Below are positions 25,646-52,107 of a DNA stretch of 64,000 nucleotides, in pieces. The notes under the pieces were generated by a model, which saw nothing but the letters and a program-made list of their open reading frames with translations, made no database searches and was not told the DNA's origin. Each line of letters opens with the position of its first letter. Position 1 is the stretch's first letter. Both the position numbers and the translations under genes were made by a program. Source of the DNA: Candidatus Omnitrophota bacterium (GTDB taxonomy: Bacteria > Omnitrophota > Omnitrophia > Omnitrophales > Aquincolibacteriaceae). The stretch spans positions 112,648 to 176,647 of the forward strand of contig JAKLFP010000004.1 in assembly GCA_022711115.1 (NCBI GenBank), written 5' to 3'.

Positions 25646-27619
25646 TTATAAACGGTTTTGAGAAAGTTCCGCGTTATTTATTTTACTCCACTCTTGAGAT
25701 AATCGTTTGGCCCTGTCCCATTCCTGCATTTGTTCCAGTTTCTCAAGTTGTTTTTGAGCGGCGGTGACGTTACCTGTTTGGGCATAAGCTTCACCGAGGT
25801 CATAAATCATTTCCGCATTATGAGGATCCAGCGAGCAAGCCTTCTGAAGAAGGTTGATGGCTTTTTCGAATTCTTTGCGGCCTCGAGCTATTAACCCGAG
25901 ATTATAGTAAGCAGGAGATAAAAAAGGGTTGATCTTTATGGCTGCTTCAAGATTTGTGACGGCCTCAGCGATATTTCTCTTTCGGATATTAAAGATTCCT
26001 AAATTGACATAAGCAATGTAATAAGTCGGGAACTTCTGTATAGCTTTCTGGAGTATTTCAATCGCAAGATCCTGTTGGCCCATCGCGTCGTAGAGAAGTC
26101 CTAAATTGTTGTACGAGTCATAAAATTCGGGATCCGATTCGATGGCTTTTTGATAGAGAGGCAAGGCTTTTTCGAAATTTCCGCTTTGATGAAACAAGGT
26201 AGCAAGATTGAAATAGCTAATGGCAAAGTGAGGATCTTTTTCCAGGGCCTTCTCGTAAGACTCTTTGGCTCTTATGGGGTCATGCAAGCTGTGATAGAAG
26301 TAATTCCCCAAATTGTTGTAAGGTCTTGCTTTATTCGGCGATTTTTTAATGACATCTTCCCACAGCAACTGTTCCGACCCCCAAATATGATTGCGGGTGT
26401 AGGCCATGCACGAAAAGATCATAACGACCAGAGAACCCGCCACCATAAAGTAAGACGCCTTCTCTAAAAAAGAAAATAGGCCGATCCCTAGCAGTAATGC
26501 GCATCCGACAAGGGGAAGATACATGCGGTGTTCGAAAATGACGTCCTCAAGCGGGATGACGGATGATTCAACGCTCAAGGTTAGAAAGAACCAGAAGATC
26601 GAAAATGTGATAAAACGGTTTTTTTTGATCGTCCCAAGGGCTGCTGCCAATAACGTCCCCAGCAAAAATAAGCAAGCCAAAGTTTTTGGCTCCCACAAAG
26701 AATGTGCTGTCGGGTAGTCATAATCAAAATTCTGATTCACCGGCAGGAGGAAGAGACGCAGATAGGTGCATAAAACGTTAAGTTCCGTTAAAAAGTAATC
26801 GCCGCGTGGGAGTGCCTTTATGCGGATGGGAAGAAAGTTTTTGGAGTGAATGTTGTAGCTGGCGGCTTCTGAATGAACAAAATAGGGGATAATGGCCATA
26901 GTGGCTAAAAAGGGGATCAGGCGAAGAAGATTCTTTTTGGAAAAATCAAAAAACAGAAACTCAACCAACAAAAGAGCCAAAGGCAATGTAAAAGCAGTTT
27001 CTTTGCAAAACATGGCCGCAAGATTCATTCCAAAGGCCATTCCGTAATGGATCTTGTTTTGAGTCAGTCTTGCTTTGAGGTAAAAAATAATGGTTCCCAA
27101 ATAGAAAAAAGCAGTTAGGGAGGTCATGCGCTGAACAATGTAGGTTACCGATTGGGTTTGGAGCGGGTGCGACAGGAAAATTAAGGAACTGAAGGCTGCC
27201 AGAAAATATCCCGCTTTTTCAGGGTATTTTCCTTTCATTTTAGGGGTTATCAGGAGAAGCGAGATGAGAAAGTAAACCCAAATGGAGTTCAGTAGATGCA
27301 CCGCCAGATTGAAAAGGTGGTAGCCCCACACCTGATCCTTGCCCAGAGCATGATTGATTGCAAAGGACACAAAAGGAAGAAATCGGATTTTGTTATTCGA
27401 AGACCAGATCGCAGGAATGTCCCATGTCTTATAAAGGGAGATATTTTGTTTGATGTTCATACTGTCATCAAACAGGAAGGGAACATGCCAGGTATTGGAA
27501 TAAATCAGGAGCCCGAGAATGAAAATGGCAAAGCATAATAATGGAAACTTATTTTTAAAAATAAATTCCGGTATTTTTTTTTCATTTCGTGATGCGGAAG
27601 TCATTCGTTTTGTCATCAT
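25646..27619 (-). CDS. TMTC-like polytopic membrane protein (GT-C/PMT_2-like N-domain + C-terminal TPR array)
   Basis: About 400 aa with roughly 10 TM helices and an FDD motif after TM1, then at least 7 TPR repeats. This architecture matches eukaryotic TMTC O-mannosyltransferases and bacterial DUF1736-TPR proteins. Confidence 0.65.
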   Translation of the reverse strand: MMTKRMTSASRNEKKIPEFIFKNKFPLLCFAIFILGLLIYSNTWHVPFLFDDSMNIKQNISLYKTWDIPAIWSSNNKIRFLPFVSFAINHALGKDQVWGYHLFNLAVHLLNSIWVYFLISLLLITPKMKGKYPEKAGYFLAAFSSLIFLSHPLQTQSVTYIVQRMTSLTAFFYLGTIIFYLKARLTQNKIHYGMAFGMNLAAMFCKETAFTLPLALLLVEFLFFDFSKKNLLRLIPFLATMAIIPYFVHSEAASYNIHSKNFLPIRIKALPRGDYFLTELNVLCTYLRLFLLPVNQNFDYDYPTAHSLWEPKTLACLFLLGTLLAAALGTIKKNRFITFSIFWFFLTLSVESSVIPLEDVIFEHRMYLPLVGCALLLGIGLFSFLEKASYFMVAGSLVVMIFSCMAYTRNHIWGSEQLLWEDVIKKSPNKARPYNNLGNYFYHSLHDPIRAKESYEKALEKDPHFAISYFNLATLFHQSGNFEKALPLYQKAIESDPEFYDSYNNLGLLYDAMGQQDLAIEILQKAIQKFPTYYIAYVNLGIFNIRKRNIAEAVTNLEAAIKINPFLSPAYYNLGLIARGRKEFEKAINLLQKACSLDPHNAEMIYDLGEAYAQTGNVTAAQKQLEKLEQMQEWDRAKRLSQEWSKINNAELSQNRL

Positions 27620-27739: not shown

Positions 27740-28498
27740 TTAAATAAGAGAAAGACCGCCGTCGGCAATGAGCACTTGCCCGACGATCCAGGAAGATTCC
27801 GGAGAACAGAGGAAAGCGACGACGCGGGCAAGGTCTTCGGGTTTTCCGATCCGGCCGGCCGGGGTGCGTTTCAAGACTTCTGTTTTAAAAGTATCAAAAA
27901 AGGGAAAGGCTTTTAAGGCGTCTGTATCCACTAGACCGCCCGAGACACCATTCACACGGATGCCTTTGGGCATCAGTTCCACACCCAAATAACGGATCAT
28001 GCCTTCTAAGGCCGCTTTTGAAATTCCGATGGCACCGTAATTGGGAATATAGCGGTGAGATCCCAAACTTGAAATAGCGATGATGGAACCCTCTTTTTTG
28101 GGCTCCATGATCGGAATGACTTTTTGGACCAAGGAAAGAAAGGCTTTTGTGTTGATATTGAACGAAAGGTCCCACTGATTCATTTTGAGTCGATGGACAG
28201 GTTTGAACGCGCCGAGAGCCGCGTTATGAATCAGAATGTCGATCGTCCCGAAGGTTTTAAGAACATTTTCAATCAAAGCGGGATGGGCATCAAAATCGCC
28301 GACATTAGTTTGAAAAATATCGGTTTTGACGCCCTTAGCTTGGATTTCTTCCGCAGTCTTTTTTGCAGCTTCTTCATTTTGAAGATAATTGATCGCGATA
28401 TTCACCCCTTCCTCTGCAAGACGAAGGGCCGTAGCCTTGCCGATACCGCGTGATGCTCCCGTAATGAGAGCCGTTTTGCCTTTCAGATGCGTTTTCAT
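27740..28498 (-). CDS. SDR-family enoyl-ACP reductase, FabL-like
   Basis: TGASRGIGKA cofactor motif. Y-x6-K catalytic spacing (YGAIGISK), typical of FabI/FabL rather than FabG. SSLGS.RY..NY...G.SKAALE...RYL.VEL.PK.I.VN.VSGG..DTDALK.FP closely follows B. subtilis FabL. Start taken at MKTHLKGK. Confidence 0.65.
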   Translation of the reverse strand: MKTHLKGKTALITGASRGIGKATALRLAEEGVNIAINYLQNEEAAKKTAEEIQAKGVKTDIFQTNVGDFDAHPALIENVLKTFGTIDILIHNAALGAFKPVHRLKMNQWDLSFNINTKAFLSLVQKVIPIMEPKKEGSIIAISSLGSHRYIPNYGAIGISKAALEGMIRYLGVELMPKGIRVNGVSGGLVDTDALKAFPFFDTFKTEVLKRTPAGRIGKPEDLARVVAFLCSPESSWIVGQVLIADGGLSLI

Positions 28499-28622
28499 GA
28501 GCGATAAGATATCAGAAAAGATCAAAAATCGAAATAAAAACTTAGAGTCATTCATAAAAGTCAATCATTTCAATAAAACCCCATAATGTTCAAAGGAGTT
28601 TTTTAGGGCACAAGAACTTATC

Positions 28623-29345
28623 GTGGTTCATCGTTTTTATCGAGTTTTCAAAAAAGAAGCTTTGGGCAAAAAGATAGCATGTGCTATAATTTCCTGCCCA
28701 AAAGCAGAACTTAATGTGAATTCTATCTATCAGGGACTACGGTCTTTTCAGCGCAAAATACTGGATGGTTTGGTACGGCACTTTGCCCATCATGCATTGG
28801 AATTAAGAGCTGAAAAATTTACCAGGCTTTTTGAAAATCAGATACCCGAAAGAAGCCGGATCTTGGATCTGGGCGGGGGTTGGGGTTTTTATGCAGAGCC
28901 TCTCAAACAAAGGGGCCATGAGCATTTGATCCTGGATGTCGTGAAACCAGGGTATCAAAAAGCCCCTGTGGTGCTCTATGAGGGCACAAAGATCCCGTTT
29001 CCGGATCAAAGTTTTGATGTGACGCTTCTTGTGACCATGCTTCATCATGTGGACGATCCGGAAAGCCTTTTTCGTGAAGTTTATCGCGTGACCAGAAAAA
29101 AAGTCGTGGTGATCGAAGATCTTTATCATCATGCGGTTGGTCGTTTGTGGACCATAGGCCGTGATCGGCTTTTAAATATGGAATTTATGAGTCATCCGCA
29201 TCAATTTCGGAAACATGATGAGTGGCTTGTTTTTTTTCAGAAACAGAAATTCGCAATACTTGATTTTAAATCGGCCTATACTTGGTTGTCGGGTTTCCGT
29301 ATCTTGAACGGCGTTTATATTTTGGAACCAAATAAAAATTTATGA
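28623..29345 (+). CDS. class I SAM-dependent methyltransferase
   Basis: Motif I ILDLGGGWGFYA. Motif II acidic LDVV. Methyltransf_11-like size. Confidence 0.7.
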   Translation: MVHRFYRVFKKEALGKKIACAIISCPKAELNVNSIYQGLRSFQRKILDGLVRHFAHHALELRAEKFTRLFENQIPERSRILDLGGGWGFYAEPLKQRGHEHLILDVVKPGYQKAPVVLYEGTKIPFPDQSFDVTLLVTMLHHVDDPESLFREVYRVTRKKVVVIEDLYHHAVGRLWTIGRDRLLNMEFMSHPHQFRKHDEWLVFFQKQKFAILDFKSAYTWLSGFRILNGVYILEPNKNL

Positions 29346-29749
29346 CAACGCTCGCGATCGAAAAAGTGCTCTGGGTCAAGGAAGGCGAGGGAATTGCGGC
29401 TTGCGGTAAAATCCCTGCTGATTCGGAATTTTTTAAAGATCATTTTCCGGCTTTTCCGGTTCTTCCGGGTGTTTTAGCGCTTGAAATGCTCAAGCAGACC
29501 GCGGAGCGCTATCTGGATTCTATGGGGGAGCAACGCGGGCAGCACTATTTTTTAAAACAGATTCGCGCGACACGTTTTACAAAGTACCTCCGTCCCGGAG
29601 ACGAATGGGAAAGCAGATTGACGCTTTTACAGTATTCGGACGAAGAAACGGTTTGGGATGCAAAATTATTGCACCATCAGGAAGTGGCAGTTTCGGCGAA
29701 ATTAATTTTGGCTAAAGTTAAGAATCCGCAATCATCAGCATTATCCTAG
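29342..29749 (+). CDS. hot-dog fold beta-hydroxyacyl-ACP dehydratase, FabZ-like
   Basis: DHFPAFPVLPGVLALEMLKQ matches the FabZ HFPGNPVMPGVL..E..AQ active-site region. Start overlaps the MT stop (ATGA). Confidence 0.65.
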   Translation: MTTLAIEKVLWVKEGEGIAACGKIPADSEFFKDHFPAFPVLPGVLALEMLKQTAERYLDSMGEQRGQHYFLKQIRATRFTKYLRPGDEWESRLTLLQYSDEETVWDAKLLHHQEVAVSAKLILAKVKNPQSSALS

Positions 29750-29765: not shown

Positions 29766-30173
29766 ATGGAAAACGAGCTTTTTGTAAAAGTTCAGCAGAC
29801 ATTAGCCGGAGCCTTGGGTGTGGAACAAAGTGAAATCACCCCTGAAGCATCCCTTAAGCGCGATCTCGGTGCCGAATCGATAGACTTTATTGACATTATT
29901 TTTCGGCTTGAAAAAACTTTTGATATCAAAATCCCGAGCGGCGATCTCTTTCCCAGCCATCTGCTGAATGACGAGAAGTTCGTTAAAGAGGGGATAATCA
30001 CCGCAGAAGGACTCAACGAGCTCCGCACGAAACTCCCTTATCTCGAATTAGGTGAATTTTCCAAAGACCCGCAAATTACCAAGCTGGCGGATCAATTCAC
30101 CGTCAATATGATACTTCGTTATCTTCAGGATCGTTTAGGCAAGCATTCCTGCTCTGATCAATGCTGCTCGTAA
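29766..30173 (+). CDS. acyl carrier protein with an unusual ~55-aa C-terminal extension
   Basis: DLGAESIDFIDI carries the phosphopantetheine-attachment Ser. 135 aa against about 78 for canonical ACP. Cys-rich tail HSCSDQCCS. Confidence 0.65.
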   Translation: MENELFVKVQQTLAGALGVEQSEITPEASLKRDLGAESIDFIDIIFRLEKTFDIKIPSGDLFPSHLLNDEKFVKEGIITAEGLNELRTKLPYLELGEFSKDPQITKLADQFTVNMILRYLQDRLGKHSCSDQCCS

Positions 30174-30547
30174 AGCAACAACACGCTGCGCTAAAGGGCG
30201 TTGGCGTTGATCTCATTTCCTGCTTGCGAATCAAACAATTCCTAGCGCGTCATGGTGATTATGTTCGTGCGCGATTTCTGAATGCCTCCGAACGCCGTTC
30301 TTTCAAGCGATTGTCTTTACAGAACTTTGCCGAACTTTTTACGGCGAAGGAGGCTTTCTTTAAAGCCTGCGGGGAAGCATGGATGGGGCTTGAGGGGTTT
30401 CAGGGTATGCGCATGAAACGGCGGAGTGGTGATTTTTTTGAAATGGAATGGCGTCCCGCCAGACACTCAAAAGTGATTTATCGCGGAGAAGGCCATTTTT
30501 TCCGTAGCGGTGATCTTGTCGGCGCGCAAGCGATGATCTGGAAATAA
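30161..30547 (+). CDS. AcpS-type 4'-phosphopantetheinyl transferase (holo-ACP synthase-like)
   Basis: GVGVDLISCLRI (compare AcpS GIGTDIVEI.R) and KEAFFKA (compare KEAVSKA). 128 aa. Confidence 0.6.
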   Translation: MLLVKQQHAALKGVGVDLISCLRIKQFLARHGDYVRARFLNASERRSFKRLSLQNFAELFTAKEAFFKACGEAWMGLEGFQGMRMKRRSGDFFEMEWRPARHSKVIYRGEGHFFRSGDLVGAQAMIWK

Positions 30548-30548
30548 T

Positions 30549-30986
30549 ATGCGCTGGCTTCTTCTGGATAAAGTCCTCTCGATTCACAAAGGTAAAAAAG
30601 CGATTGCCTCTTCTAAAGTTCCCCAGGCTCCTTATAGTTCCGAGATCCTCCTTGTCGAAATGATGGCACAAGCCGGTGGTTTGCTTGTGGGTGCCGAGAG
30701 CGATTATCAGAAAGATCTTATTTTTGCCAAAATCGAAAATGTGACTTTTACGGAAATGCCGAAATCCGGGACGCCGATTCAAATCGAAACTTGGGCCGAC
30801 GGCCTTGGCCCGGACGGCGGTTGGTTGGAAGGCCATGTGACTTGTGCGGAGGGGGTTTTGGCTAAAGGAAAATTTCTGCTGATGACCGTGGGGCGCCTTA
30901 TCCCTGAGCACGCGAGTTCCATTACGTTTCATGAGGCTTTTATGAATTATTTCAAAGTTCGTGAAAAAATTTTTGTGGAATCATGA
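30549..30986 (+). CDS. second hot-dog fold dehydratase-like protein
   Basis: 145 aa. LLVEMMAQAGGLL core typical of FabA/FabZ/ApeI-like hot-dog proteins. Confidence 0.5.
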   Translation: MRWLLLDKVLSIHKGKKAIASSKVPQAPYSSEILLVEMMAQAGGLLVGAESDYQKDLIFAKIENVTFTEMPKSGTPIQIETWADGLGPDGGWLEGHVTCAEGVLAKGKFLLMTVGRLIPEHASSITFHEAFMNYFKVREKIFVES

Positions 30987-32269
30987 GCGCGAAACGCCGG
31001 GTGGTTATCGCGGGATTGGGCGCTATTACGGCCTGTGGCAAAGGGTGGGAGCCTTATTGGAATGCCGCGATTCAAGGTCGCTCTGCCATTGTCAGTGCCA
31101 AACCGCTCAACCTCGGCAACTTTCCGTTTAAAAATGCCGGCATGATTCCTGATTTTGACGCGAAGGAATTCGTTGAGAATCGAAAATCGATCAAGGTGAT
31201 GTCGCGAGAAATTCAGCTGGCTGTGGGGGCCAGCCGTCTGGCTCTTCGGGATGCGAAACTTTCTCCGGAGAATTACGATCCGACGCGCATTGGAGTGACT
31301 CTCGGAACCGGGATCATCAATAATGATCTCGATGAGATCGGTATCGGTTTTCGGAATAGTTTGGATGAATCCGGGCATTTTTCCATGAATAAATTCGGAC
31401 AGGAAGGTATCCGGTCGCTTTTCCCTCTTTGGTTTTTGAAATATCTTCCGAACATGCCTGCTTGTCATGTTTCGATGGTGAACCAGCTTCGCGGTCCGAA
31501 CAACACCGTGACAACTTCTTCTGCGGCAAGCACCCAAGCGATCGGAGAAGCCTATCATGTGATTGAACGAGGTGATGCGGATGTGATGCTCGCGGGAGGG
31601 ACGGATTCTAAGCTCAATGCCATGGGCATTTCCCGGTTGCACCTTCTCGGATTTTTGTCTCAGCATGAAGATGCCCCCGAGAAAGTTTATTGCCCCTTTG
31701 ATGAAAAGCATGATGGGATTGTACTCGGAGAAGGTGCGGGCATTATGGTGCTGGAGTCTTTGGAAAGTGCGAAAAGGCGCGGGGCGAATATTTATGCCGA
31801 AATCATTGGCTATGGTTCTTCTTCGGATTTTAATTATGACCCGCGCGATGCGGATGATTTTACGGGCAAGCGTGTAGCCATCCGGCGAGCCCTTGAAGAT
31901 GCCGGACTTGAGCCCGAGGACGTGAATGTGATCGTTGCAAACGGAAGCGGGATCCCCCAGGAGGATGTCCAGGAATCGCTTGCGATCCAATCTTTTTACG
32001 GACAAACTTTCGGAAAGCTTCAAGTCACCGCAGTGAAACCTGTGACAGGGCATCTGGTCTATGGGTCAGGGAGTGTGGAGGCAATGGTCGCTGCCTTAAC
32101 CACCAAGAAAAAACTGATCCCTCCGGTCATCAATCTTGTAAAGCCGGATTCGAATTGCCCATTGCCTTTTGTTATCGGGAAGACAAAATCCTGTGAAGTG
32201 AAGGTAGCGGTTATCAATACATTCGGTTTTGGCGGGCAAAATGCATCCTTGGTGTTTCAACATGTCTAA
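30983..32269 (+). CDS. ketosynthase-like chain-length-factor partner (KS-beta, non-canonical active site)
   Basis: Thiolase fold. At the FabF ATACTSG position it has TTSSAAS (Cys to Ser). HGTGT is replaced by ANGSG. Second His retained (GHLVYGSGSVE). Confidence 0.75.
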   Translation: MSAKRRVVIAGLGAITACGKGWEPYWNAAIQGRSAIVSAKPLNLGNFPFKNAGMIPDFDAKEFVENRKSIKVMSREIQLAVGASRLALRDAKLSPENYDPTRIGVTLGTGIINNDLDEIGIGFRNSLDESGHFSMNKFGQEGIRSLFPLWFLKYLPNMPACHVSMVNQLRGPNNTVTTSSAASTQAIGEAYHVIERGDADVMLAGGTDSKLNAMGISRLHLLGFLSQHEDAPEKVYCPFDEKHDGIVLGEGAGIMVLESLESAKRRGANIYAEIIGYGSSSDFNYDPRDADDFTGKRVAIRRALEDAGLEPEDVNVIVANGSGIPQEDVQESLAIQSFYGQTFGKLQVTAVKPVTGHLVYGSGSVEAMVAALTTKKKLIPPVINLVKPDSNCPLPFVIGKTKSCEVKVAVINTFGFGGQNASLVFQHV

Positions 32270-33560
32270 GCGACGCGTGGTTGTGACAGGTATGGGTGCT
32301 GTGACGCCATTGGGCAACAATCTCAAGGATACTTGGCTGCGTATCACGCAGGGAAAATCCGGGATAGGTCCGATCACGCTTTTTGACGCAAGCCGTTTTC
32401 CGACGCGAATCGCGGGAGAGGTGAAAGGATTTCCTTTCGAGAAGTGGGTGGAGCACGACCCGCCGCTTGCTTGCGCGACACGAAGCACATTTTTCGCGCT
32501 TCAAGCCGCTGCGGAAGCTTATAAAGACGCCGGGCTCAGGCCTTTTTGTGTGAATCCGAACCGTTTTGGCATTTATTTCGGGGCGGGGGACAGCGGTATT
32601 GATTTCGAACCTTTTCTAAAAACTCTTTTACCGTCTTTTACGACAAGTGGCAGCGAAATTATTGATAAAGAAAAATATCTGGTGAATTCCAGTCAGCATA
32701 TGAGCGCTCTCCGTGAATTGGAAAGCCAGCCTTTTATGACCGTGACCCACCTGACGCGTCTTTTCGATATCCGGGGACCTGTTTCTAATTGTCTGACAGC
32801 TTGCGCGGCATCTTCCCAAGCGATTGGCGAAGCTTTTGAATGGCTCAGGCGCGGGGATGCAGATGTGATCATGGCCGGAGGAACGCATTCCATGATCTAT
32901 CCGATGGGAGTGGCGGGTTTCAGTTTGTTGACGGCGCTTTCCACGCGCAATGATGCGCCGGAAAAGGCATCCCGGCCTTTTGATAAAAAACGTAATGGTT
33001 TTGTAATCGGTGAAGGTTCCGGTGTTTTAATTCTTGAGGATTTGGATCATGCGCTCCATCGTCAGGCCCAGATTTACGGTGAAATCGTGGGGTATGGTTC
33101 CACTGCCGATGCTTACCGGCTTACGGATATGGACCCGGAAGGCAAGGGAGCTTCCCGGGCTATGGAGATTGCACTTGAAAAAGGCGGGCTTGGGCCTGAG
33201 AATGTGGACTATATCAATGCGCATGGCACATCAACGGTAGTGAATGATTCTCTCGAAACGTTGGTGATCAAAAAAGTGATGAAAGAATATGCGCCGAAGA
33301 TCCCGGTCAGCTCGACAAAATCCATGTTAGGCCATATGATCGCAGCGGCGGGGGGCGTGGAAGCGGCGTTTTGCTTTTTAGCGATGCGCGACTCAATCCT
33401 TCCGCCGACCATCAACTACGAAGAACCGGATCCCGATTGCGATCTGGATTATGTTCCCAATATGGCACGGCGTGCGGAAATTGCTGTGACACTGTCGAAC
33501 TCTTTTGGATTCGGCGGACAGAATATTTGTTTAGCGATGAGGAAATACAATGGCAAATAA
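32262..33560 (+). CDS. beta-ketoacyl-ACP synthase (KS-alpha, FabF/FabB-like)
   Basis: Active-site Cys in LTACAASSQAIGEA. HGTST present. Second His GHMIAAAGGVEA. Start ATG 32262 overlaps the CLF stop (ATGTCTAA). Confidence 0.85.
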   Translation: MSKRRVVVTGMGAVTPLGNNLKDTWLRITQGKSGIGPITLFDASRFPTRIAGEVKGFPFEKWVEHDPPLACATRSTFFALQAAAEAYKDAGLRPFCVNPNRFGIYFGAGDSGIDFEPFLKTLLPSFTTSGSEIIDKEKYLVNSSQHMSALRELESQPFMTVTHLTRLFDIRGPVSNCLTACAASSQAIGEAFEWLRRGDADVIMAGGTHSMIYPMGVAGFSLLTALSTRNDAPEKASRPFDKKRNGFVIGEGSGVLILEDLDHALHRQAQIYGEIVGYGSTADAYRLTDMDPEGKGASRAMEIALEKGGLGPENVDYINAHGTSTVVNDSLETLVIKKVMKEYAPKIPVSSTKSMLGHMIAAAGGVEAAFCFLAMRDSILPPTINYEEPDPDCDLDYVPNMARRAEIAVTLSNSFGFGGQNICLAMRKYNGK

Positions 33561-34644
33561 ATTGATTTTTATGACTGGTGCAACCGGAGTTCTCGGTCAA
33601 GACCTGATCAAAGAACTTCTTGAAACGACAGATGCGGATATCGCGATCCTTGCGCGTGCGAAAAACAGAAAATCTCATGATGAACGCGTTAGAAAGATTC
33701 TCAAATCAATCGGATTGGATGCTCATATGGGAAAGCGCATCCGTGTTGTGGAAGGTGATGTGACGCAGCATAAGTTCGGGATTACCAAAGAAAATCTTGC
33801 CTTTCTCGAAAAAGAAGCAAAGGTTTTTTATCATATTGCTGCGCTTACGGCGCTCAACGGTACCGAGAAGGAGTGCCAGCAAATCAATGTGGGGGGCACG
33901 CAGCACGCACTGGAACTGGCATGGGATCTTCGCAAGAAAGGCAAGCTGGAGCGGTTCGTTTATTTCAGTACCGCATTCGTGGCCGGCAGTGTCTGGCAAC
34001 ATTGTTCGAAGGAGGATGAATTGCCGGAAAAACCGAAGTTTGCAAATTACTATGAATCCAGCAAGTACCAGGCTGAAAGCAGGGTTCGCGAATCCATGGC
34101 GAAAGGGTTGCCGGTGACGATCATCCGGCCGAGTATTGTGGTCGGACATTCCGAGACCGGTGAAGTTTCGGATTTTAACGTGATCTATCCGTTTTTTAAA
34201 TTGTTCGCTCACGGGGCCATTTCAAAATTACCGACGCATGTTGAAAACACATTTAATATTGTCCCCATTGATTTTGTGATTAAGGCAACGGCCACGATCG
34301 TAAAAAATCCTAAAAGCATCAATAAAACCTTTCATTTAGTATCTCCTCATCCTCCTTCGATCGGCATGCTTTTGAAACTGGCAAAAGATGAATACCCGAA
34401 AGTGCCATCGATCGAAGTGATGGATATCAAGGATTTTCAAAAAACAAAATTGAACGCGCAGGAACAAATGGTTTTTACGATTATGGAGCCTTATCTCGGC
34501 TACTTGAACGGGGACCTGACCTTTGACATGAGTAATACCCGGGAGATTCTTCGCGGGACTAAGGTTTTACTTCCAAAGACCGATTATAAATTTCTTAAGA
34601 CAATGATTCATTATGCTGTGAAAGCGGGCTATCTAGTCATCTGA
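33550..34644 (+). CDS. stand-alone thioester reductase domain protein (NAD_binding_4 / fatty acyl reductase-like)
   Basis: FMTGATGVLGQDL (GxTGxxG). YYESSKYQAESRV (YxxSKxxAE). Length and motif spacing match terminal R domains. Confidence 0.75.
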   Translation: MANKLIFMTGATGVLGQDLIKELLETTDADIAILARAKNRKSHDERVRKILKSIGLDAHMGKRIRVVEGDVTQHKFGITKENLAFLEKEAKVFYHIAALTALNGTEKECQQINVGGTQHALELAWDLRKKGKLERFVYFSTAFVAGSVWQHCSKEDELPEKPKFANYYESSKYQAESRVRESMAKGLPVTIIRPSIVVGHSETGEVSDFNVIYPFFKLFAHGAISKLPTHVENTFNIVPIDFVIKATATIVKNPKSINKTFHLVSPHPPSIGMLLKLAKDEYPKVPSIEVMDIKDFQKTKLNAQEQMVFTIMEPYLGYLNGDLTFDMSNTREILRGTKVLLPKTDYKFLKTMIHYAVKAGYLVI

Positions 34645-34673: not shown

Positions 34674-35033
34674 ATGAAAAAAACAATGATGTCGATTTTG
34701 CTTCTGGCGATTTTCGGAATGTTCACTTCTTTTGCGATGGCGGAGTCTTCTTATGATCTGGATCCGGCGTCTCCGGTTGAGCAATTGGATGATACGGTTT
34801 CCAGCAATGCCCCTGCGGCTACGGTGAGCGATACGATGAATGCCGAGGACACGACAGTTCAGAGTGAAGTGGAGAAGAAGGAAAAGAAAGAGAAAAAAGA
34901 GAAGAAAGAAAAAAAAGGAAAAAAGAAAGAAACAAAGAAAAAAGCCAAATCCGCCAAGAAGAGCATGAAAAAAGCCGGCAATACCGGTATGAGCGCGAAG
35001 GCACATAAGGCGAAAAAGCAACAGGTTCAATAA
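34674..35033 (+). CDS. secreted lysine-rich low-complexity protein
   Basis: Sec signal (…SFAMA-ESS), acidic middle, then KEKKEKKEKKEKKGKKKETKKKAKSAKK tail. Last gene of the operon before a strong terminator. Confidence 0.5.
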   Translation: MKKTMMSILLLAIFGMFTSFAMAESSYDLDPASPVEQLDDTVSSNAPAATVSDTMNAEDTTVQSEVEKKEKKEKKEKKEKKGKKKETKKKAKSAKKSMKKAGNTGMSAKAHKAKKQQVQ

Positions 35034-35056
35034 GATAAGACAGTTTAATTTTATGA

Positions 35057-35099
35057 GAGGCGTTGTTTCAAGCGTTTGCTTGGAGCAACGCCTTTTTTT
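35057..35099. terminator. rho-independent terminator (bidirectional position)
   Basis: GGCGTTG-20 nt-CAACGCC followed by TTTTTTTG. Sits between convergent genes. Confidence 0.8.
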
Positions 35100-35102
35100 G
35101 AT

Positions 35103-36335
35103 TTAACGCCAATGGGTGGGGCGCTTTAGGATCGCCATTTGCAAGGCATCCAAAAGGATCATGAAGAGGATCAGGGCTGCGAAGGGATGAAGAAAGGCGT
35201 AAGCTTTTTTTGCTTTGACGATACTGTAAGCCTTCCATGCGGTGGCGAACATAATTCCCAGAATCGCGAGGGTAAGAACCATGGGAACAGAAAGGGCAGT
35301 TGTTTTGGCGAGTAAGCAGATGAATGCGATGAAGGGAAAGACAGAAAAAAAGAAGACGCTTAAAGCACATCTCAAAAGAGGCAACGGTTTTTGCTCAAAA
35401 CCATGGAGAAAGATTCTTCGCCAGCCTCGCCAGATCGAGCCATAGGAGTCATACATTCGAGTGCCGTAAATATCCATCCCAAAGGCACAGATTCCGCGGG
35501 CGCCTATTTTTTTGGTTTTCTTCATAAGAGCAAAATCCTCCAGAAATGCTTCTTTAACGGAAGCGTGGCCGCCCATTTTTTGATAATGCTCCTTACGAAT
35601 GAGCATGTATTGTCCGTTGCCGAAGTAAACCCTGGATTTCGGATCATTGATCTTTTGAACCGGAAACCACAAGCCGGTATAGCCCATGGCGCATGGCTGC
35701 ATTAAAAATTCCCAGAAACTGTCCGCCAGGCAGCGCGGAAGAAGCGTTAAAAGATCCACCCCATTTTTTTCCGCGAAGGCAACTGCCGCAGTCACGCTTC
35801 CGGGTTGGTGGCGTGTGTCCGCATCCGTAAAAAGGAGCCAGTCGCCCCCAGCGTAATAGATGCCGAGATGAAGTGCGAAGTTCTTGCCGGTCCAGCCGCC
35901 GGGCGTCTGCGGCGTGTTCAGGTATTTAAGCCGGATATTCGGATCTGTTGGGAGATCACCCAAAGCAATTTGTTGTGCGCCGAGAGATTTCAAAATATCT
36001 TCGGTCTTATCCTGGGAACAATTATTAATGACAAGGATCTCGTCTCCGTCATGCAATTGAGGCAGGAGAGATTGAACACAATCTCCGATATTTTTTTCTT
36101 CATTTTTGGCCGGAATTAAAACCGTAACTTTCCCAACGCGGGGTTCCTGGTCCTGACAAGTGAGCCTGGGAGCCTGTTTGAGCTCCGAGAGGGCACGCCA
36201 GCTTCGATAGACCCATCCGGCAAGAATGATGAGGAACACTAAGGATGAAAGGAGTCGTAACGTTTCCATATTATTTGGAATCATAACATAAAGGTCAAAC
36301 AGACAAAGCAAAATATCCGTAAACAACGAAGTCAT
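35103..36335 (-). CDS. membrane-anchored GT2-family glycosyltransferase (DPM1/ALG5/GtrB-like catalytic core, HpnI-like topology)
   Basis: N-terminal TM pair. VLIPAKNEEKNIGDC...ILVINNCSQD. DAD motif FTDADTRH. C-terminal TM helices with SIWRGWRRIF ((Q/R)xxRW-like). Confidence 0.75.
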   Translation of the reverse strand: MTSLFTDILLCLFDLYVMIPNNMETLRLLSSLVFLIILAGWVYRSWRALSELKQAPRLTCQDQEPRVGKVTVLIPAKNEEKNIGDCVQSLLPQLHDGDEILVINNCSQDKTEDILKSLGAQQIALGDLPTDPNIRLKYLNTPQTPGGWTGKNFALHLGIYYAGGDWLLFTDADTRHQPGSVTAAVAFAEKNGVDLLTLLPRCLADSFWEFLMQPCAMGYTGLWFPVQKINDPKSRVYFGNGQYMLIRKEHYQKMGGHASVKEAFLEDFALMKKTKKIGARGICAFGMDIYGTRMYDSYGSIWRGWRRIFLHGFEQKPLPLLRCALSVFFFSVFPFIAFICLLAKTTALSVPMVLTLAILGIMFATAWKAYSIVKAKKAYAFLHPFAALILFMILLDALQMAILKRPTHWR

Positions 36336-36540: not shown

Positions 36541-37353
36541 ATGGAACGAAAAATATTAGTTGTGGATGATGAGCCGGATATTGTCGAACTCATTGAGGCA
36601 GTGCTCAATGAGCATGGGTTCGAAGTCTTTACAGCCCATAACGGCAAGGACGCTCTTGAGGTTGCCAGGCGTGAAAAGCCGGATCTGATCATTTCCGATA
36701 TTTGTATGCCGGGTCTTTCCGGATATGAATTTTGGAAGGCCCTCAAGGACCTCAAGCTTGGGAATGCGGGTGAGATTCCCGTGCTCATTATTTCCGCGCA
36801 TGGCGACATGCAATCCTTTTTTGATTCTTGGGGCATTTGTGGTTTTCTTGCCAAACCTTTTAATGAACAGGAGTTGATGGTAAAAGTCCTAGAAGTTATC
36901 GGCCCGGAGGCAGAAAAAAAAGCGGAAATGATGGAAAAAATCGCGAAAAGAAAGAAGATCCTTATTCGCAGCATTCAAGATTTTTCGGTTAAAAAGCTTA
37001 CCTCCTTTTTGGAATCTCAAGGACATACGGTGATGCATGCCTATGATGAAAATGAAACGATCGCCGTGGCCCAGAAGTTTTTACCCGATTTTGTTTTCAA
37101 TCAATATTTGGAAGATACGCCGGCGTCTGATAGCGAGAAAATTTTAGAGGGACTTGCCGCGATTACTCCTCCCCAAAAAATCGAATATGCGGTTTTTTGT
37201 CTGGAACCTCTTACGGTGGAGGCAAAGAAAAACGTTCCGGAACCTCATCCCGTCTTCAGTTATGTCAATTCCGAATGGCTCATTCATATGGTAGAGCGTT
37301 TTATCGCGCAGCAAGGCGAAAAAAAAGACGTTTCAGAAGAAAAAAATAAGTGA
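36541..37353 (+). CDS. response regulator, receiver domain only (second half is a degenerate REC-like domain)
   Basis: ILVVDDEPDIVELIEAV...PDLIISDICMPGLSGYEF...LISAHGD is a canonical CheY-like REC. No DNA-binding output domain. Confidence 0.7.
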   Translation: MERKILVVDDEPDIVELIEAVLNEHGFEVFTAHNGKDALEVARREKPDLIISDICMPGLSGYEFWKALKDLKLGNAGEIPVLIISAHGDMQSFFDSWGICGFLAKPFNEQELMVKVLEVIGPEAEKKAEMMEKIAKRKKILIRSIQDFSVKKLTSFLESQGHTVMHAYDENETIAVAQKFLPDFVFNQYLEDTPASDSEKILEGLAAITPPQKIEYAVFCLEPLTVEAKKNVPEPHPVFSYVNSEWLIHMVERFIAQQGEKKDVSEEKNK

Positions 37354-37498: not shown

Positions 37499-38248
37499 AT
37501 GAGAACCGAACAAGATCTTTACGTGGAAACGGGATACCGTATCTTGCATGAAGACGACTTTTTTTTCGTCGTAGATAAGCCTTCGCCGCTGCCCGTGCAT
37601 CCGGTGGGACGTTTTAAGGAAAAAAACCTGCTAAGCCTTCTTAAAAGAGATTTGGTTTCATGTCGCGGGGAGTTGCGGATCGTGAACCGTCTTGATTCTG
37701 AGACGAGCGGTCTTGTGATGGTCGCGAAGTCAAGTTCTGTTGCCGGGAAATTGGGAATTCTTTTTGAAAGAAGACAAGTGAGGAAGGAGTATTATACCGT
37801 AGTTTTCGGTGTGCCGATAGAAAAGGAAGGGACGATCGCAATGTCTCTCGGGACCAAGATCGAGAGGGGGCACAATATCCGAATGCCGGATCCCGACGGG
37901 GAAAAGGCTCAGACGGATTTTCAAGTTCTAAGGAGTTTTGGCGATTATTCCTTACTCAAAGTGATCCCGCGGACAGGGCGGACGCATCAAATCCGGGCCC
38001 ATCTTGCGTACTTGGGGCATCCGGTCGTCGGAGACAAAGTCTACATTGATGCAGCGATCTTTGAACGTTACATTCATGACGGTTGGCAGGAGGACATGCG
38101 GTCTGTGGTCAAAGCTGAAAGGCTTCTTTTACACGCCTCTTTGCTGGCATTCCAACATCCCGTCACCGGTGAAGACCTGAAATTTACGGCTGAGATTCCA
38201 CCTTGTTTTGATGTATTTTTGGATCAAGCAATGAGCCGAATTGCATAA
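37499..38248 (+). CDS. RluA-family pseudouridine synthase
   Basis: HRLDSETSGLVMVAK catalytic Asp motif. GRTHQIRAHLA motif III. Confidence 0.85.
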   Translation: MRTEQDLYVETGYRILHEDDFFFVVDKPSPLPVHPVGRFKEKNLLSLLKRDLVSCRGELRIVNRLDSETSGLVMVAKSSSVAGKLGILFERRQVRKEYYTVVFGVPIEKEGTIAMSLGTKIERGHNIRMPDPDGEKAQTDFQVLRSFGDYSLLKVIPRTGRTHQIRAHLAYLGHPVVGDKVYIDAAIFERYIHDGWQEDMRSVVKAERLLLHASLLAFQHPVTGEDLKFTAEIPPCFDVFLDQAMSRIA

Positions 38249-43403: not shown

Positions 43404-43925
43404 ATGATCTGCAATGTCTGCGGTACCAAAGAAGCAACGATTCATCTGACCGAAGTGATGAATGGTCAGATGTCTGAAGTCCATATTTGTGAATCTTGCG
43501 CGGAAGAAAAGGGCACTGAATTTAAAACCTATTTTAATTTCGGAGATCTTCTGGCGGGAGTTCCGGGTATCGAAGGGCTGATGGAAGGTGTGGGCAAAAA
43601 AACACCGCTGGTATGCAAGGATTGCGGGATGACTTATGAAGAGTTTGGCAAGAGCGGTCGCTTGGGTTGTGCGGAATGCTATCAGGCTTTTCAAAAACCT
43701 CTCGTGGCATTGATCAAACAAGTGCAGCGGGCGAATTATCATGTAGGGAAAAAGCCATCCCGGATTGCCAAAGATGTCAGGAATGTTCATGACCTGAGAC
43801 AACTTCAGGAAAAGCTCCGGAAAAGCATTCAGATGGAACAATTTGAAGAAGCTGCGCGTTTGAGGGATGCCATCAAACAGGCCGAGGAAAAAACGAAAAA
43901 AGGGAAAAAGACAAAAGATGAGTGA
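43404..43925 (+). CDS. mcsA: McsA-like protein-arginine-kinase activator (zinc fingers + UVR domain)
   Basis: Four CxxC pairs (CNVC..CESC..CKDCG..CAEC). C-terminal UVR motif EQFEEAARLRDAIK. Collinear with B. subtilis McsA. Confidence 0.85.
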   Translation: MICNVCGTKEATIHLTEVMNGQMSEVHICESCAEEKGTEFKTYFNFGDLLAGVPGIEGLMEGVGKKTPLVCKDCGMTYEEFGKSGRLGCAECYQAFQKPLVALIKQVQRANYHVGKKPSRIAKDVRNVHDLRQLQEKLRKSIQMEQFEEAARLRDAIKQAEEKTKKGKKTKDE

Positions 43926-44982
43926 GGTCGATCGATTTCTTAATCAACCGGTGAATTGGTTGAAATCCACAGGTCCGGAAAGTGATGTGGTCATCAGCTC
44001 GCGTTTGCGCATGGCGAGGAATTTGAAAACGTTTCATTTTTCAGGGCGCCTGGTGGCTGAAAAACGAGCGGACCTGATCCGGGAAGTTGGTGATGTGGTG
44101 AGAAACTCCAACTTTCTCAAAAAGGCATCTTATATTTTGGTGGATGGACTTTGCGAACTCGACCGGCAATTTCTCTTAGAACGGCATCTTGTCAGTCGGG
44201 AACTGATTGCCGAGGAAGGCAAATGTGCGGTTGCGATCACACCGGATGAAATGGTCAGTCTGATGGTGATCGAGGAAGATCATCTCCGGCTTCAGGTTTT
44301 TCAGTCTGGCCTTAATCTTTTGGAAACATGGCGGATCGCGGATGAAATCGATACGGAGCTTGAGAAAAAACTGGAATTTGCGTTCGATGCGACCCTCGGC
44401 TATTTGACAGCTTGTCCCACGAATGTCGGCACCGGTCTCCGGGCCTCATGCATGCTTCACCTGCCAAGCCTTGTACTGACGAAACAAGTGCATAAGGTGC
44501 TGCAGGCTTTATCTAAGCTGAATCTTGCGGTGAGGGGACTTTATGGCGAAGGGACGCAGGCAAGCGGCAATTTCTTCCAGTTTTCGAATCAGATCACCTT
44601 GGGACAGCCGGAAGAAGAAGTCATCAATAATCTAGAAGGAGTGATCCGTCAGGTCATTACACATGAACGCGAAGCCCGGGAATATCTCAAGAAAAAAAGA
44701 AAATCAAAAATGGAAGATCAAATATGGCGTGCCCTGGCGGCTTTAAAGGCAGCGCGTCTGATGTCGTCTTCCGAAGCCATCCAGTTGCTTTCACTTGTGC
44801 AGGTCGGCGTGGACGTCGGGATTCTTCAAGGGCAAGTGACCCATACGGACCTGAATCAGCTTTTTCTTTTGATCCAACCGGCTCATTTGCAGAAGACAAA
44901 TGGCAAGGAACTGAATACGACGGATCGTGATGCTTTTCGCGCCGATCGTATCCGGGAATATTTTTCTAAGGTTGTTCTTTAA
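43918..44982 (+). CDS. mcsB: protein arginine kinase McsB (ATP:guanido phosphotransferase)
   Basis: Phosphagen-kinase signature CPTNVGTGLRAS. Start ATG 43918 overlaps the mcsA stop by 8 nt. Confidence 0.9.
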   Translation: MSEVDRFLNQPVNWLKSTGPESDVVISSRLRMARNLKTFHFSGRLVAEKRADLIREVGDVVRNSNFLKKASYILVDGLCELDRQFLLERHLVSRELIAEEGKCAVAITPDEMVSLMVIEEDHLRLQVFQSGLNLLETWRIADEIDTELEKKLEFAFDATLGYLTACPTNVGTGLRASCMLHLPSLVLTKQVHKVLQALSKLNLAVRGLYGEGTQASGNFFQFSNQITLGQPEEEVINNLEGVIRQVITHEREAREYLKKKRKSKMEDQIWRALAALKAARLMSSSEAIQLLSLVQVGVDVGILQGQVTHTDLNQLFLLIQPAHLQKTNGKELNTTDRDAFRADRIREYFSKVVL

Positions 44983-45008
44983 ATCCAATGCAGCGGGAGG
45001 CGGAAGTT

Positions 45009-46697: not shown

Positions 46698-46737
46698 TGC
46701 TTATTTTTTATCATAGGACTAGATCCGGAGGTTAAAA

Positions 46738-49194: not shown

Positions 49195-49212
49195 AGTAGA
49201 GAGTTCGTTCCC

Positions 49213-51135: not shown

Positions 51136-51283
51136 AGATTCTTGTGCTCGTTTTCATTTAATAGCTTCACAAAAGCGGCAATGTTAACTTGTGCATCGTC
51201 GTTATCGGCATCAAGGCCGAAACGATAAATGCCTGAGCAAAAAACTTGGTAAATTCGGTTTCAACTCAATCGTAAGGAATGGT

Positions 51284-52096: not shown

Positions 52097-52107
52097 GTGA
52101 GAGGCTG

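Follow-up and report, generated by a model that had tools for sequence, protein, structure and literature searches.

Heterocyst glycolipids are made by a PKS/FAS-type synthase that works with a chain-length factor (CLF) and its own phosphopantetheinyl transferase (PPTase), after which a thioester reductase (TR) gives the fatty alcohol and a glycosyltransferase, HglT, attaches the sugar head group last (PMC11804610, PMC10569477). We here describe a family 2 glycosyltransferase (GT2) gene from a Candidatus Omnitrophota genome that lies beside a comparable set of genes, in a window of 64,000 nucleotides to which all coordinates below refer. As in the heterocyst pathway, a ketosynthase (KS), a CLF, an acyl carrier protein (ACP), a PPTase and a TR are encoded together with a glycosyltransferase; this likeness is one of pathway logic. 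The full heterocyst set is KS, CLF, ACP, KR, DH, ER, TR and PPTase together with HglT. However, the heterocyst pathway is cyanobacterial and uses large multidomain synthases, whereas in Omnitrophota, a non-photosynthetic phylum across which the system is conserved, the proteins are discrete and of type II, and a methyltransferase is added.

A second parallel is found in ApeJ, a GT2 that is likewise encoded in a lipid cluster with KS, CLF, ACP, an ApeI-type dehydratase and MMPL genes. In contrast to the protein described here, ApeJ is a 558-aa GT2 that its authors predicted to be a glycosyltransferase/acyltransferase. Orthology was rejected, as ApeJ of E. coli CFT073 has no detectable similarity to the Omnitrophota GT2 (BLASTP E = 3). 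In Omnitrophota metagenome-assembled genomes (MAGs), antiSMASH 'ladderane'-type clusters of unknown function have been described (PMC9902471), and these may be the same KS-pair operon. Our literature search for Omnitrophota lipids or glycolipids found nothing relevant. An earlier note on this DNA had left two roles in competition for the GT2, namely synthesis of a polyprenyl-phosphate-sugar for ALG10-like enzymes and glycosylation of the operon's lipid product.

Gene, fold and membrane architecture of the GT2

The GT2 gene is an uninterrupted open reading frame (ORF) on the minus strand (35103–36335) of 410 aa, and its translation contains LIPAKNEEKNI, FTDADTRH and SIWRGWRRIF, just as the earlier note had read it. 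The family assignment made there also stands: PF00535 matches residues 71–198 with 79.1 bits (gathering score 23.3), PF13506 (GT21) matches residues 144–284 with 42.3 bits (gathering score 21.7), and the protein is a family 2 glycosyltransferase with a GT-A fold. The true start is probably M23 at 36269, which would give a protein of 388 aa. Our preference for M23 over M1 comes from homology only: orthologues are approximately 385 aa long, most of them begin at the M23 equivalent (MEI...), and residues 1–22 are missing in most. The same residues have low model confidence (pLDDT 59–70). No convincing ribosome-binding site was found for either of the two start candidates inspected, and a promoter-like match at 36298–36270 falls within the 5′ extension and cannot decide between them. 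Among GT2 homologues, identity is 60–74% in many MAGs.

The structure model (pLDDT 88.5) and hydropathy agree on the membrane segments. The N-terminal transmembrane (TM) helix spans residues 23–46 (METLRLLSSLVFLIILAGWVYRSW, with basic residues after it; 36198–36269, minus strand) and appears as model helix H23–54 with a hydropathy peak at residues 32–37. The C-terminal bundle of three TM helices spans residues 317–403 (35127–35387, minus strand; model helices H317–344, H350–372 and H377–403). C-terminal TM helices had been proposed before, and so had an N-terminal pair, of which one helix (about residues 24–46) is robust and the second is doubtful, given how residues 1–22 behave in the orthologues and in the model. 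As modelled, the architecture is 'minimal cellulose-synthase-like', in that a single TM helix at the N-terminus and three at the C-terminus flank a cytoplasmic GT-A domain and amphipathic interface helices.

Across 159 aligned superfamily members, the conserved residues are E79, S107, D109, W148, G150, K151, D171, D173, G241, D267, G304 and W305. Both aspartates of the DxD motif D171-A-D173 (35817–35825, minus strand), predicted to bind metal and NDP-sugar, are identical in 159/159 sequences. Equally invariant (159/159) is D267 of E266-D267 (35535–35540, minus strand), a dipeptide corresponding to (T)ED, the motif of the catalytic base in membrane GT2 synthases, and motif order and spacing point to D267 as the putative catalytic base. 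With regard to the GT21-type D1, D2, D3, (Q/R)xxRW signature, D109, D171/D173 and D267 are present, and the final motif reads R303-G-W-R-R307. The latter is part of W302-R-G-W-R-R307 (35415–35432, minus strand), a variant (Q/R)xxRW motif at the start of an interface helix (model helix H298–312), and its Trp presumably sits two positions ahead of the place expected from the (Q/R)xxRW spacing of BcsA and UGCG. G304-W305 is kept throughout the superfamily, whereas R306 and R307 are specific to the GT2 clade in the 159-sequence alignment, the other clades reading mostly xEGWTK at this position. The clade-specific basic residues at the interface (R306, R307 and H311) could indicate an anionic acceptor, which we note as a point against a neutral alcohol.

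The best structural matches of the model are PcManGT, hyaluronan synthases and BcsA, and the model superposes on the cellulose/hyaluronan-synthase-like membrane fold, including the interface and TM helices. Sequence identity to PcManGT, hyaluronan synthase, BcsA and GT21 glucosylceramide synthase is only 9–18%. The order of the motifs (D, DxD, ED, xxGW) also resembles the D,D,D,QxxRW signature. Both observations would fit a processive or semi-processive synthase (hyaluronan, chitin or cellulose synthase-like) or a PcManGT-like transferase acting on a lipid-linked glycan, but we consider such a role improbable. In size the protein falls well short of the processive synthases, with only four TM helices in approximately 385 aa and no accessory domains. 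Furthermore, the QxxRW motif is altered, its RW Trp/Arg pattern being changed to GWRR, the closest sequence families are single-sugar lipid glycosyltransferases, and the neighbourhood contains no genes for polysaccharide export or modification.

Placement among membrane glycosyltransferases

On sequence grounds, namely whole-length homology and shared invariant residues, the GT2 is a member of the HpnB/CruG/CruC/CrtQ-like superfamily of membrane lipid glycosyltransferases, which comprises 881 cluster representatives at E ≤ 1e-30. The best-scoring curated model is HpnB (TIGR03469; 155 bits, 2.8e-45), which aligns residues 28–409 to model positions 6–379 of 386, and the CruG equivalog model (138.5 bits, 2.8e-40) aligns residues 47–410 to positions 19–382 of 386. 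Orthology to either was rejected, given that the scores are far under the cut-offs of 379.25 (HpnB) and 600 (CruG), and hence the acceptor is not readable from orthology. Ten relatives from other phyla are also under the HpnB cut-off, at 131.9–222.6 bits. No function has been established for HpnB (PMC12583986), so the HpnB match says little about substrate. Searching PDB sequences with the family profile returned generic N-terminal GT2 matches and no solved close homologue.

Automated annotation (JGI, Prokka) calls homologues carotenoid glycosyltransferases, either chlorobactene glucosyltransferase or diaponeurosporenoate glycosyltransferase. The homology to the curated CruG model is full length and includes the C-terminal TM region, and the chemistry expected is that of CruG, CruC and CrtQ, in which a very hydrophobic lipid receives one sugar on a hydroxyl or carboxyl group at the membrane. 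However, the partner of the GT2 is a KS/CLF/ACP/thioester-reductase operon and not a terpenoid pathway, and WRGWRR takes the place of the xEGWTK found at the interface in most relatives. Neither carotenoid biosynthesis genes nor hopanoid-pathway domains (hpn or squalene-hopene cyclase) were seen among the ORFs scanned in the window. With HpnB the GT2 shares a parallel local gene set of Rossmann-fold reductase, GT2 and, in a sister clade, MMPL/RND protein; the reductase near the GT2 has weak similarity to HpnA (63.6 bits), and the best solved relative of the sister-clade MMPL/RND protein is HpnN. Unlike that of HpnB, the neighbourhood of the GT2 is devoid of a squalene-hopene cyclase or other hpn gene. 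The GT21 match and the HpnB/CruG homology favour the comparison, made in the earlier note, of the RW-type motif with HpnI and ceramide-glucosyltransferase-like enzymes.

The catalytic core had also been likened to DPM1/ALG5 and to GtrB/ArnC. This resemblance is real but generic, covering the nucleotide-binding half of GT-A with its DxD motif. All matches of the family profile to PDB sequences are restricted to profile positions of about 40–175, the N-terminal half of GT-A, and within this partial coverage soluble GT2s (5e-12) and chondroitin synthase (2.5e-11) outscore GtrB (5.6e-8), DPMS (1.1e-6) and ArnC (0.02–0.17). NCBIfam models of polyprenyl-phosphate glycosyltransferases match the GT2 weakly and at the N-terminus only, with 15.4 bits for PpgS (cut-off 370) and 25 bits for AglJ (cut-off 325, residues 69–123 only). 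The membrane architecture of these enzymes, in which GT-A and interface helices are followed by a C-terminal TM hairpin, is also not that of the GT2. Membership of the DPM1/ALG5/GtrB/ArnC group was rejected on the basis of the model scores, the partial extent of the sequence matches and the structure.

We therefore give very little credence to the proposal that the GT2 is a polyprenyl-phosphate-sugar synthase of this type, making the donor for the three ALG10-like GT-C enzymes encoded in the window (253–1470, 1545–2765 and 6760–8055). It does have some attractions, as the GT2 is a membrane enzyme that carries a DxD motif, GtrB and DPMS are among its profile matches, the Arg and His residues that distinguish the clade at the membrane interface could in principle bind phosphate, and no other GT2 able to serve the ALG10-like genes was found among the ORFs scanned in the window. 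Besides the low model scores and the better matches to generic soluble GT2s, however, an N-terminal TM helix and a GW(R/T)(R/K) motif at the QxxRW position are features of the synthase-like class, and the ALG10-like genes are 27–35 kb away, with a transposase, prfB, secA and lnt between. Local co-occurrence was nil: ALG10-like genes were found within 8–10 kb of the GT2 in none of the 167 related loci screened. If the GT2 acts on the operon's lipid, this removes a tempting but wrong link between it and the ALG10-like GT-C genes, and the lipid-linked sugar donor of the latter must come from a gene outside the window.

The neighbouring operon and its linkage to the GT2 gene

The operon is encoded on the plus strand in the order methyltransferase, dehydratase, ACP, PPTase, dehydratase, CLF-like KS, KS and MxaA-like TR. 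Its first gene (28623–29345) encodes a SAM-dependent methyltransferase (PF08241) with weak DVU_1556-family and BioC-like matches, and the second a FabZ/ApeI-like dehydratase (29342–29749; PF07977, with PF22818 ApeI-like in orthologues; FabZ 65.7 bits). The ACP (29766–30173; PF00550 and ACP models) has a C-terminal extension of approximately 55 aa with a Cys-rich tail at its end, and is followed by an AcpS-type PPTase (30161–30547; PF01648, TIGR00556). A second, divergent FabZ-like hot-dog protein (30549–30986) is without a Pfam match and has a weak FabZ match (8.4e-7); the same position is kept in orthologous loci.

In the CLF-like KS paralogue (30983–32269), which has the Pfam KS N- and C-terminal domains, the active-site Cys is replaced by Ser and the first His by Asn, the catalytic positions reading TTSSAAS and ANGSG when aligned with ApeR, ApeO and KS2. 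The FabF-like KS (32229–33560) has the Cys/His/His triad intact, scores 481.6 bits for fabF against an equivalog cut-off of 493.75, and passes for the subfamily model NF005589. KS1 and KS2 are 30–34% identical to ApeR. The operon's last enzyme gene overlaps the KS gene by 11 nt and encodes a stand-alone TR (33550–34644; PF07993, 187 bits), to which TIGR01746 matches at full length with 171 bits, less than its cut-off of 213. The best PDB sequence match of the TR is the MxaA terminal reductase 4u7w (E 4.8e-33), and MxaA reduces a thioester to a primary alcohol. Divergent from the operon, on the minus strand (27740–28564), is a gene for a FabL-like SDR, a probable enoyl-ACP reductase (PF13561 232 bits; FabL 296.6 bits against a cut-off of 328), which occupies the same position in many orthologous loci.

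The GT2 gene does not form the end of this operon, where the earlier note had placed it. It is convergent to the operon on the opposite strand, and a terminator-like hairpin with a 19 bp stem and a T-run (35055–35096, plus strand) separates the operon from the 3′ end of the gene. Hence, the GT2, which has its own promoter region, constitutes a transcription unit by itself and is not co-transcribed with the operon. The opposite strand and the separate promoter region were counted against a functional tie between the two.

Among distinct orthologues with at least 43% identity and at least 1.5 kb of 3′ flank, the TR is adjacent and convergent to the GT2 in 41 of 45 informative loci, and in a neighbour-joining tree every TR-linked GT2 falls into one clade. 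Reverse sampling, seeded with the TR, gave a GT2 that is next to the TR, convergent to it and matching in Pfam type and length (371–389 aa) in four of five lineages, with 46–48% identity by tblastn for the two GT2s tested; the fifth lineage has two other GT2 genes downstream of the TR. In the tier of 43–55% identity an MMPL gene is divergently adjacent in every locus (16/16), and at two loci a fatty-acid desaturase is inserted after the TR. Independent cases occur outside the phylum: a 42%-identical GT2 in a Geobacter-type MAG has an AMP-ligase, an NAD_binding_4 reductase and two genes of family GT1 as neighbours, and a Planctomycetales MAG has the GT2 directly next to an NAD_binding_4-SCP2 reductase. 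A second GT2 clade is found inside KS/CLF/ACP/DH clusters.

Three lineages (L003/L004, L111 and L113) have the GT2 with no operon nearby, and in L111 and L113 it lies amid unrelated genes (PFOR, acetyl-CoA synthetase-like, S41 protease) that give no alternative functional clue. The P0284 lineage has the operon with no orthologous GT2 nearby; it is relocated next to dnaG, which shows that the operon is able to relocate. Both the operon-less GT2 lineages and the operon of P0284 were counted as counter-evidence.

The region secA-lnt-...-aaRS-macB-...-mcsB-clpC is syntenic throughout the phylum, and hence part of the adjacency between GT2 and operon could be inherited gene order and not functional coupling. 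The GT2 might then glycosylate a different membrane lipid (diacylglycerol, ceramide-like, carotenoid or hopanoid), its place beside the operon reflecting conserved Omnitrophota gene order. We think this unlikely, even though the synteny extends to the entire neighbourhood, unrelated housekeeping genes included, and L003, L111 and L113 retain the GT2 with no operon beside it. The GT21-type Pfam match, the terpenoid-lipid glycosyltransferases as nearest curated models, and a very high conservation (60–74% identity in many MAGs), as expected of a housekeeping membrane-lipid enzyme, would also be in line with a different lipid. However, the ORFs scanned in the window include no carotenoid or hopanoid genes, and in two other phyla a GT2 is again paired with an acyl reductase, although the contexts are unrelated. 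In addition, the paralogous GT2 clade lies inside KS/CLF clusters, the MMPL exporter and the desaturase insertions mark one lipid cluster, and the TR-seeded search recovers the GT2 in 4/5 lineages.

A proposed glycolipid pathway

On balance, we consider it more likely than not that the GT2 glycosylates the lipid alcohol made by the adjacent operon, in a manner resembling heterocyst glycolipid synthesis, and it is gene context that points to this acceptor. Of the two roles considered earlier, glycosylation of the lipid product is thus the one favoured by the full-length HpnB/CruG homology, the GT21 match, the synthase-like fold and the linkage to the operon in both search directions. Beyond family, fold, motifs and gene linkage, we infer the acceptor, donor, product and destination as follows.

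The acyl chain would be built by the KS/CLF pair with the dedicated ACP, the two dehydratases and the FabL-like enoyl reductase, and would be released as an aldehyde or primary alcohol by the MxaA-like TR. The membrane-embedded GT2 would be an inverting enzyme whose GT-A domain would bind an NDP-sugar via D109 and D171xD173 with a divalent cation; a UDP-hexose may be the donor, although this is a guess. The hydrophobic acceptor would enter sideways from the inner-membrane leaflet, between the W302-R-G-W-R-R307 interface helix and the TM bundle. With D267 acting as the catalytic base, the GT2 would convert the alcohol into an alkyl (or alkenyl) glycoside, comparable to the last steps of heterocyst glycolipid synthesis, which a thioester reductase and HglT carry out. 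The adjacent MMPL/RND protein of the sister Omnitrophota lineage would then export the product to the envelope.

Taken by itself, the gene encodes an ordinary-looking GT2 with a putative acceptor. The Omnitrophota are for the most part uncultured bacteria of very small size, some of them predators or parasites, and we tentatively raise the possibility, short of calling it probable, that the phylum has a characteristic envelope glycolipid. Its chain would come from the KS/CLF pair, followed by MxaA-like reduction, glycosylation by the HpnB/CruG-like GT2 and, in one major lineage, HpnN/MmpL-like export. If true, this would be a non-cyanobacterial counterpart of the heterocyst glycolipids and a potential lipid biomarker for Omnitrophota, and the glycolipid predicted, in rough outline, for a phylum almost without cultured members would be the glycoside of a long-chain alcohol that may be methylated or unsaturated. 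For a large branch of the HpnB-like superfamily that is as yet uncharacterised, it would also supply the first assigned substrate class, and for a clade of the HpnB/CruG-like superfamily, most of which is without an assigned function, a testable one.

Family and membrane layout of GT2

The minus-strand gene at 35103-36335 is an uninterrupted frame of 410 codons. It includes the sequence strings given in the earlier note and, as that note had read from them, encodes a family 2 glycosyltransferase (GT2): PF00535 scores 79.1 bits (cut-off 23.3), and GT21 (PF13506) and Glyco_tranf_2_3 are also above their Pfam thresholds. The nearest database proteins (60-98% identity, approximately 385 aa) come from Candidatus Omnitrophota MAGs, which identifies the window as part of an Omnitrophota chromosome. 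Because most of 17 aligned homologues begin at the equivalent of M23 (MEI...), codons 1-22 are probably untranslated; a clear ribosome-binding site is absent at both candidate starts, M1 and M23. The AlphaFold2 model built from the 17-homologue alignment is confident (pLDDT 88.5, pTM 0.83) and contains a single long N-terminal helix (residues 23-54) followed by the GT-A domain, an amphipathic helix (298-312) that bears WRGWRR, and C-terminal transmembrane (TM) helices at 317-344, 350-372 and 377-403, with concordant hydropathy. The N-terminal TM pair described previously is therefore probably a single TM helix, and the C-terminal helices stand, as three.

The top two NCBIfam matches both span the full length of the protein: HpnB (TIGR03469; 155 bits, GT2 residues 28-409 on model positions 6-379 of 386, cut-off 379) and the carotenoid 2'-O-glycosyltransferase CruG (138.5 bits, residues 47-410 on 19-382 of 386, cut-off 600). 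The scores are far under both curated cut-offs, which all ten tested relatives from other phyla likewise miss, and the function of HpnB itself is not established (PMC12583986). D109, D171, D173, D267 and G304-W305 are conserved across the whole set of 159 aligned homologues; R306, R307, H311 and several helix residues at 221-223 are specific to the clade of the window's GT2, and in most other clades the interface motif is xEGWTK. The motif order (D, DxD, ED, then a Trp-containing interface motif) matches synthase-like GT2s and GT21; the register of the interface motif against QxxRW is an assumed one, taken from the spacing in BcsA and UGCG. A processive enzyme, or one with a role in lipid-linked glycans, is improbable. 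The superfamily comprises 881 cluster representatives at E <= 1e-30, approximately 15 of them with at least 43% identity to the query, and the protein belongs to an uncharacterised clade of membrane lipid GT2s of the HpnB/CruG/CrtQ type.

Linkage to a convergent lipid operon

Immediately upstream of GT2 in window coordinates, and convergent with it, lies a tightly packed plus-strand operon. It encodes a methyltransferase (28623-29345), a FabZ/ApeI-like dehydratase (29342-29749), a C-terminally extended ACP (29766-30173), an AcpS-type phosphopantetheinyl transferase (PPTase; 30161-30547), a second, divergent FabZ-like protein (30549-30986), a chain-length factor (CLF)-like ketosynthase (KS) paralogue (30983-32269), a FabF-like KS with an intact triad (32229-33560) and a stand-alone thioester reductase (TR; 33550-34644), whose nearest solved relative is the MxaA terminal reductase (4.8e-33). 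A FabL-like SDR (27740-28564) diverges from the operon. The ACP has 135 aa, including an extension of approximately 55 aa with the Cys-rich tail end HSCSDQCCS; orthologue lengths of 128-137 aa indicate that this extension is conserved. The paralogue at 30983-32269 carries Ser at the position of the active-site Cys (TTSSAAS) and has its first catalytic His exchanged for Asn, which makes it a CLF-like partner that differs from the usual Gln type. In its logic the gene set is a type II KS/CLF lipid pathway with reductive release at the end. GT2 had been placed at the end of this operon; it is in fact on the opposite strand, with a strong terminator-like hairpin (35055-35096) between them.

The small ORF between TR and GT2 (34674-35033) encodes a signal peptide and an extremely Lys/Glu-rich tail (EKKEKKEKKEKK...). 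Two related loci (L001, L002) have ORFs of 89-96 aa at the matching position, and in the clade at 43-55% identity the TR and GT2 genes abut and the small ORF is absent. On the other side, between lnt and the FabL-like gene, a minus-strand gene (25646-27619) encodes a protein of 657 aa. Its N-terminal 400 aa lack a significant Pfam match, its C-terminal part carries a TPR array, and Wzy_C_2 is matched weakly; the gene's position is not conserved in other loci.

Loci seeded on GT2 were drawn from genome and metagenome collections and exact-protein look-ups and screened by tblastn with the window's proteins. After removal of duplicates, 45 orthologues with 43% identity or more have 1.5 kb or more of 3' flank, and in 41 of them TR is adjacent and convergent, usually with the whole operon behind it. 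The exceptions are three loci with GT2 in unrelated or rearranged surroundings (L003, L111, L113) and one in a Geobacter-type context (L137). All TR-linked GT2s fall in one neighbour-joining clade (58 representatives, bootstrap 60; next node out 92), in which the window's subclade has a bootstrap of 100. Since this locus set was seeded on GT2, a reverse test was seeded on TR. Four of five lineages (L172-L175) have, next to TR and convergent with it, a GT2 that matches the window's in Pfam type and length (371-389 aa), together with an RND-type MMPL transporter gene; in two of these four (L172, L173) tblastn gives 46-48% identity to the window's GT2. A fatty-acid desaturase directly follows TR in two of the four (L172, 6106-7047; L175, 6107-7072), consistent with an acyl-chain product. 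In the fifth lineage (L169-L171; TR 75% identical to the window's) the operon is beside dnaG. Three B12-binding radical SAM genes and two non-orthologous GT2 genes come after it in the same direction, suggesting that the product there is modified more elaborately.

The MMPL gene is divergently adjacent to GT2 in 16/16 loci of the 43-55% identity tier and in 0/13 of the window's own tier (at least 55%); in the window, a response regulator (36541-37353) and rluA (37499-38248) are found instead. The protein encoded upstream of GT2 in these loci (L005, L087-L089, L117-L142, L172-L175) has a sterol-sensing-type domain, and its nearest solved relatives are HpnN and MmpL4/5, as weak matches. Relatives also occur in other contexts. 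In a Geobacter-type MAG (L014, 2259-11517) a 42%-identical GT2 is clustered with an AMP-binding ligase, an NAD_binding_4 reductase, a radical SAM/SPASM protein and two GT1/GT28-like glycosyltransferases; this cluster, from a different phylum, has the look of one for fatty-alcohol oligoglycosides. In Planctomycetales a homologue lies directly against an NAD_binding_4-SCP2 reductase. A second GT2 clade (33-39% identity; Omnitrophota and Planctomycetia; L015-L017, L152, L154, L158) is found in operons with a FabG/FabL-like SDR, DUF1571, an alpha/beta hydrolase, FabA-like dehydratases and KS/CLF/ACP. Thioester reductase is absent from these operons, which appear to be a related system, perhaps with a carboxylate instead of an alcohol end.

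Synteny across Omnitrophota extends to the wider region (secA, lnt, ..., aaRS, macB-like, mcsB, clpC), so inherited gene order contributes to the linkage statistic. Recurrence in other phyla, accessory genes of lipid type and agreement between the two seeding directions argue for a functional coupling, and the linkage from both seeds supports the other role proposed earlier for GT2, glycosylation of the lipid product. Action on some other lipid acceptor is a distinctly less probable reading.

ALG10-like genes and other neighbours

ALG10/DIE2 is a family named from eukaryotes. Three paralogous minus-strand genes for ALG10/DIE2-like membrane proteins (PF04922, E 2e-24 to 2e-20) lie in the window, two in tandem (253-1470, 1545-2765) and a third 4 kb away (6760-8055) beside a GDSL/SGNH hydrolase gene (5518-6645); none of the three has an NCBIfam match. 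The earlier note had GT2, in one of two competing roles, as a candidate polyprenyl-phosphate-sugar synthase feeding these GT-C enzymes, on the strength of a DPM1/ALG5-like catalytic core. That core is the generic nucleotide-binding half of GT2s: PDB sequence matches, with the single protein or the family profile, cover the N-terminal GT-A only (profile positions approximately 40-175), soluble GT2s and chondroitin synthase outscore GtrB, DPMS and ArnC, and NCBIfam models of polyprenyl-phosphate glycosyltransferases reach 15-25 bits on the first approximately 50 GT-A residues. The ALG10-like genes are 27-35 kb from GT2, with the rve-family transposase, prfB, secA, lnt and others between, and at locus level the suggested co-occurrence is lacking, with an ALG10-like match in the GT2 flanks of 0/167 related loci screened. 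Synthesis of a polyprenyl-phosphate sugar by GT2 is thus very unlikely. No GT2 of any type lies near the ALG10-like genes, and because 35103-36335 is the only GT2 gene in the window, their donor synthase must be encoded elsewhere in the genome. Bacterial ALG10/DIE2 members merit separate study.

A phage-integrase fragment (16588-17019) and the transposase (17391-18575) break an otherwise housekeeping region and may mark a site of rearrangement where the ALG10-like and secA-lnt-lipid regions meet. Beyond GT2, an envelope and stress block (43404-53672) encodes a McsA-like protein (assigned via orthologues bearing a UVR domain), McsB, DUF4140/DUF4139, ClpC, an AsmA/YhdP-like protein (49213-51135) and MlaE/MlaF/MlaD (51191-53672); the AsmA-like and Mla genes represent lipid-transport systems near the lipid cluster.

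A candidate glycolipid pathway

We somewhat favour a role for GT2 in glycosylating the operon's lipid alcohol to an alkyl or alkenyl glycoside. In this reading the family, fold, motifs and linkage of GT2 are demonstrated, and acceptor, donor, product and destination are inferred from gene context. GT2 would be an inverting enzyme that holds an NDP-sugar in its cytoplasmic GT-A domain through D109 and D171xD173 with a metal, and D267 would be the catalytic base. The hydrophobic acceptor, most probably the alcohol freed by the adjoining KS/CLF-ACP-reductase pathway, would enter the active site laterally from the membrane. For the sister lineage, transport of the product to the envelope would fall to the adjacent MMPL protein.

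Among described pathways, heterocyst glycolipid synthesis comes closest in its logic: there, KS, CLF, ACP, KR, DH, ER, thioester reductase and PPTase act and HglT adds the sugar last (PMC11804610, PMC10569477). The window's GT2 differs from its characterised HpnB/CruG/CrtQ-type relatives in the kind of pathway with which it is associated. Our literature search found no description of this GT2-operon system or of Omnitrophota lipids; antiSMASH 'ladderane-like' clusters have been reported in Omnitrophota MAGs (PMC9902471) and may be the same operon. If the proposed role is true, the gene context predicts a new glycolipid in this phylum, and that prediction is testable.
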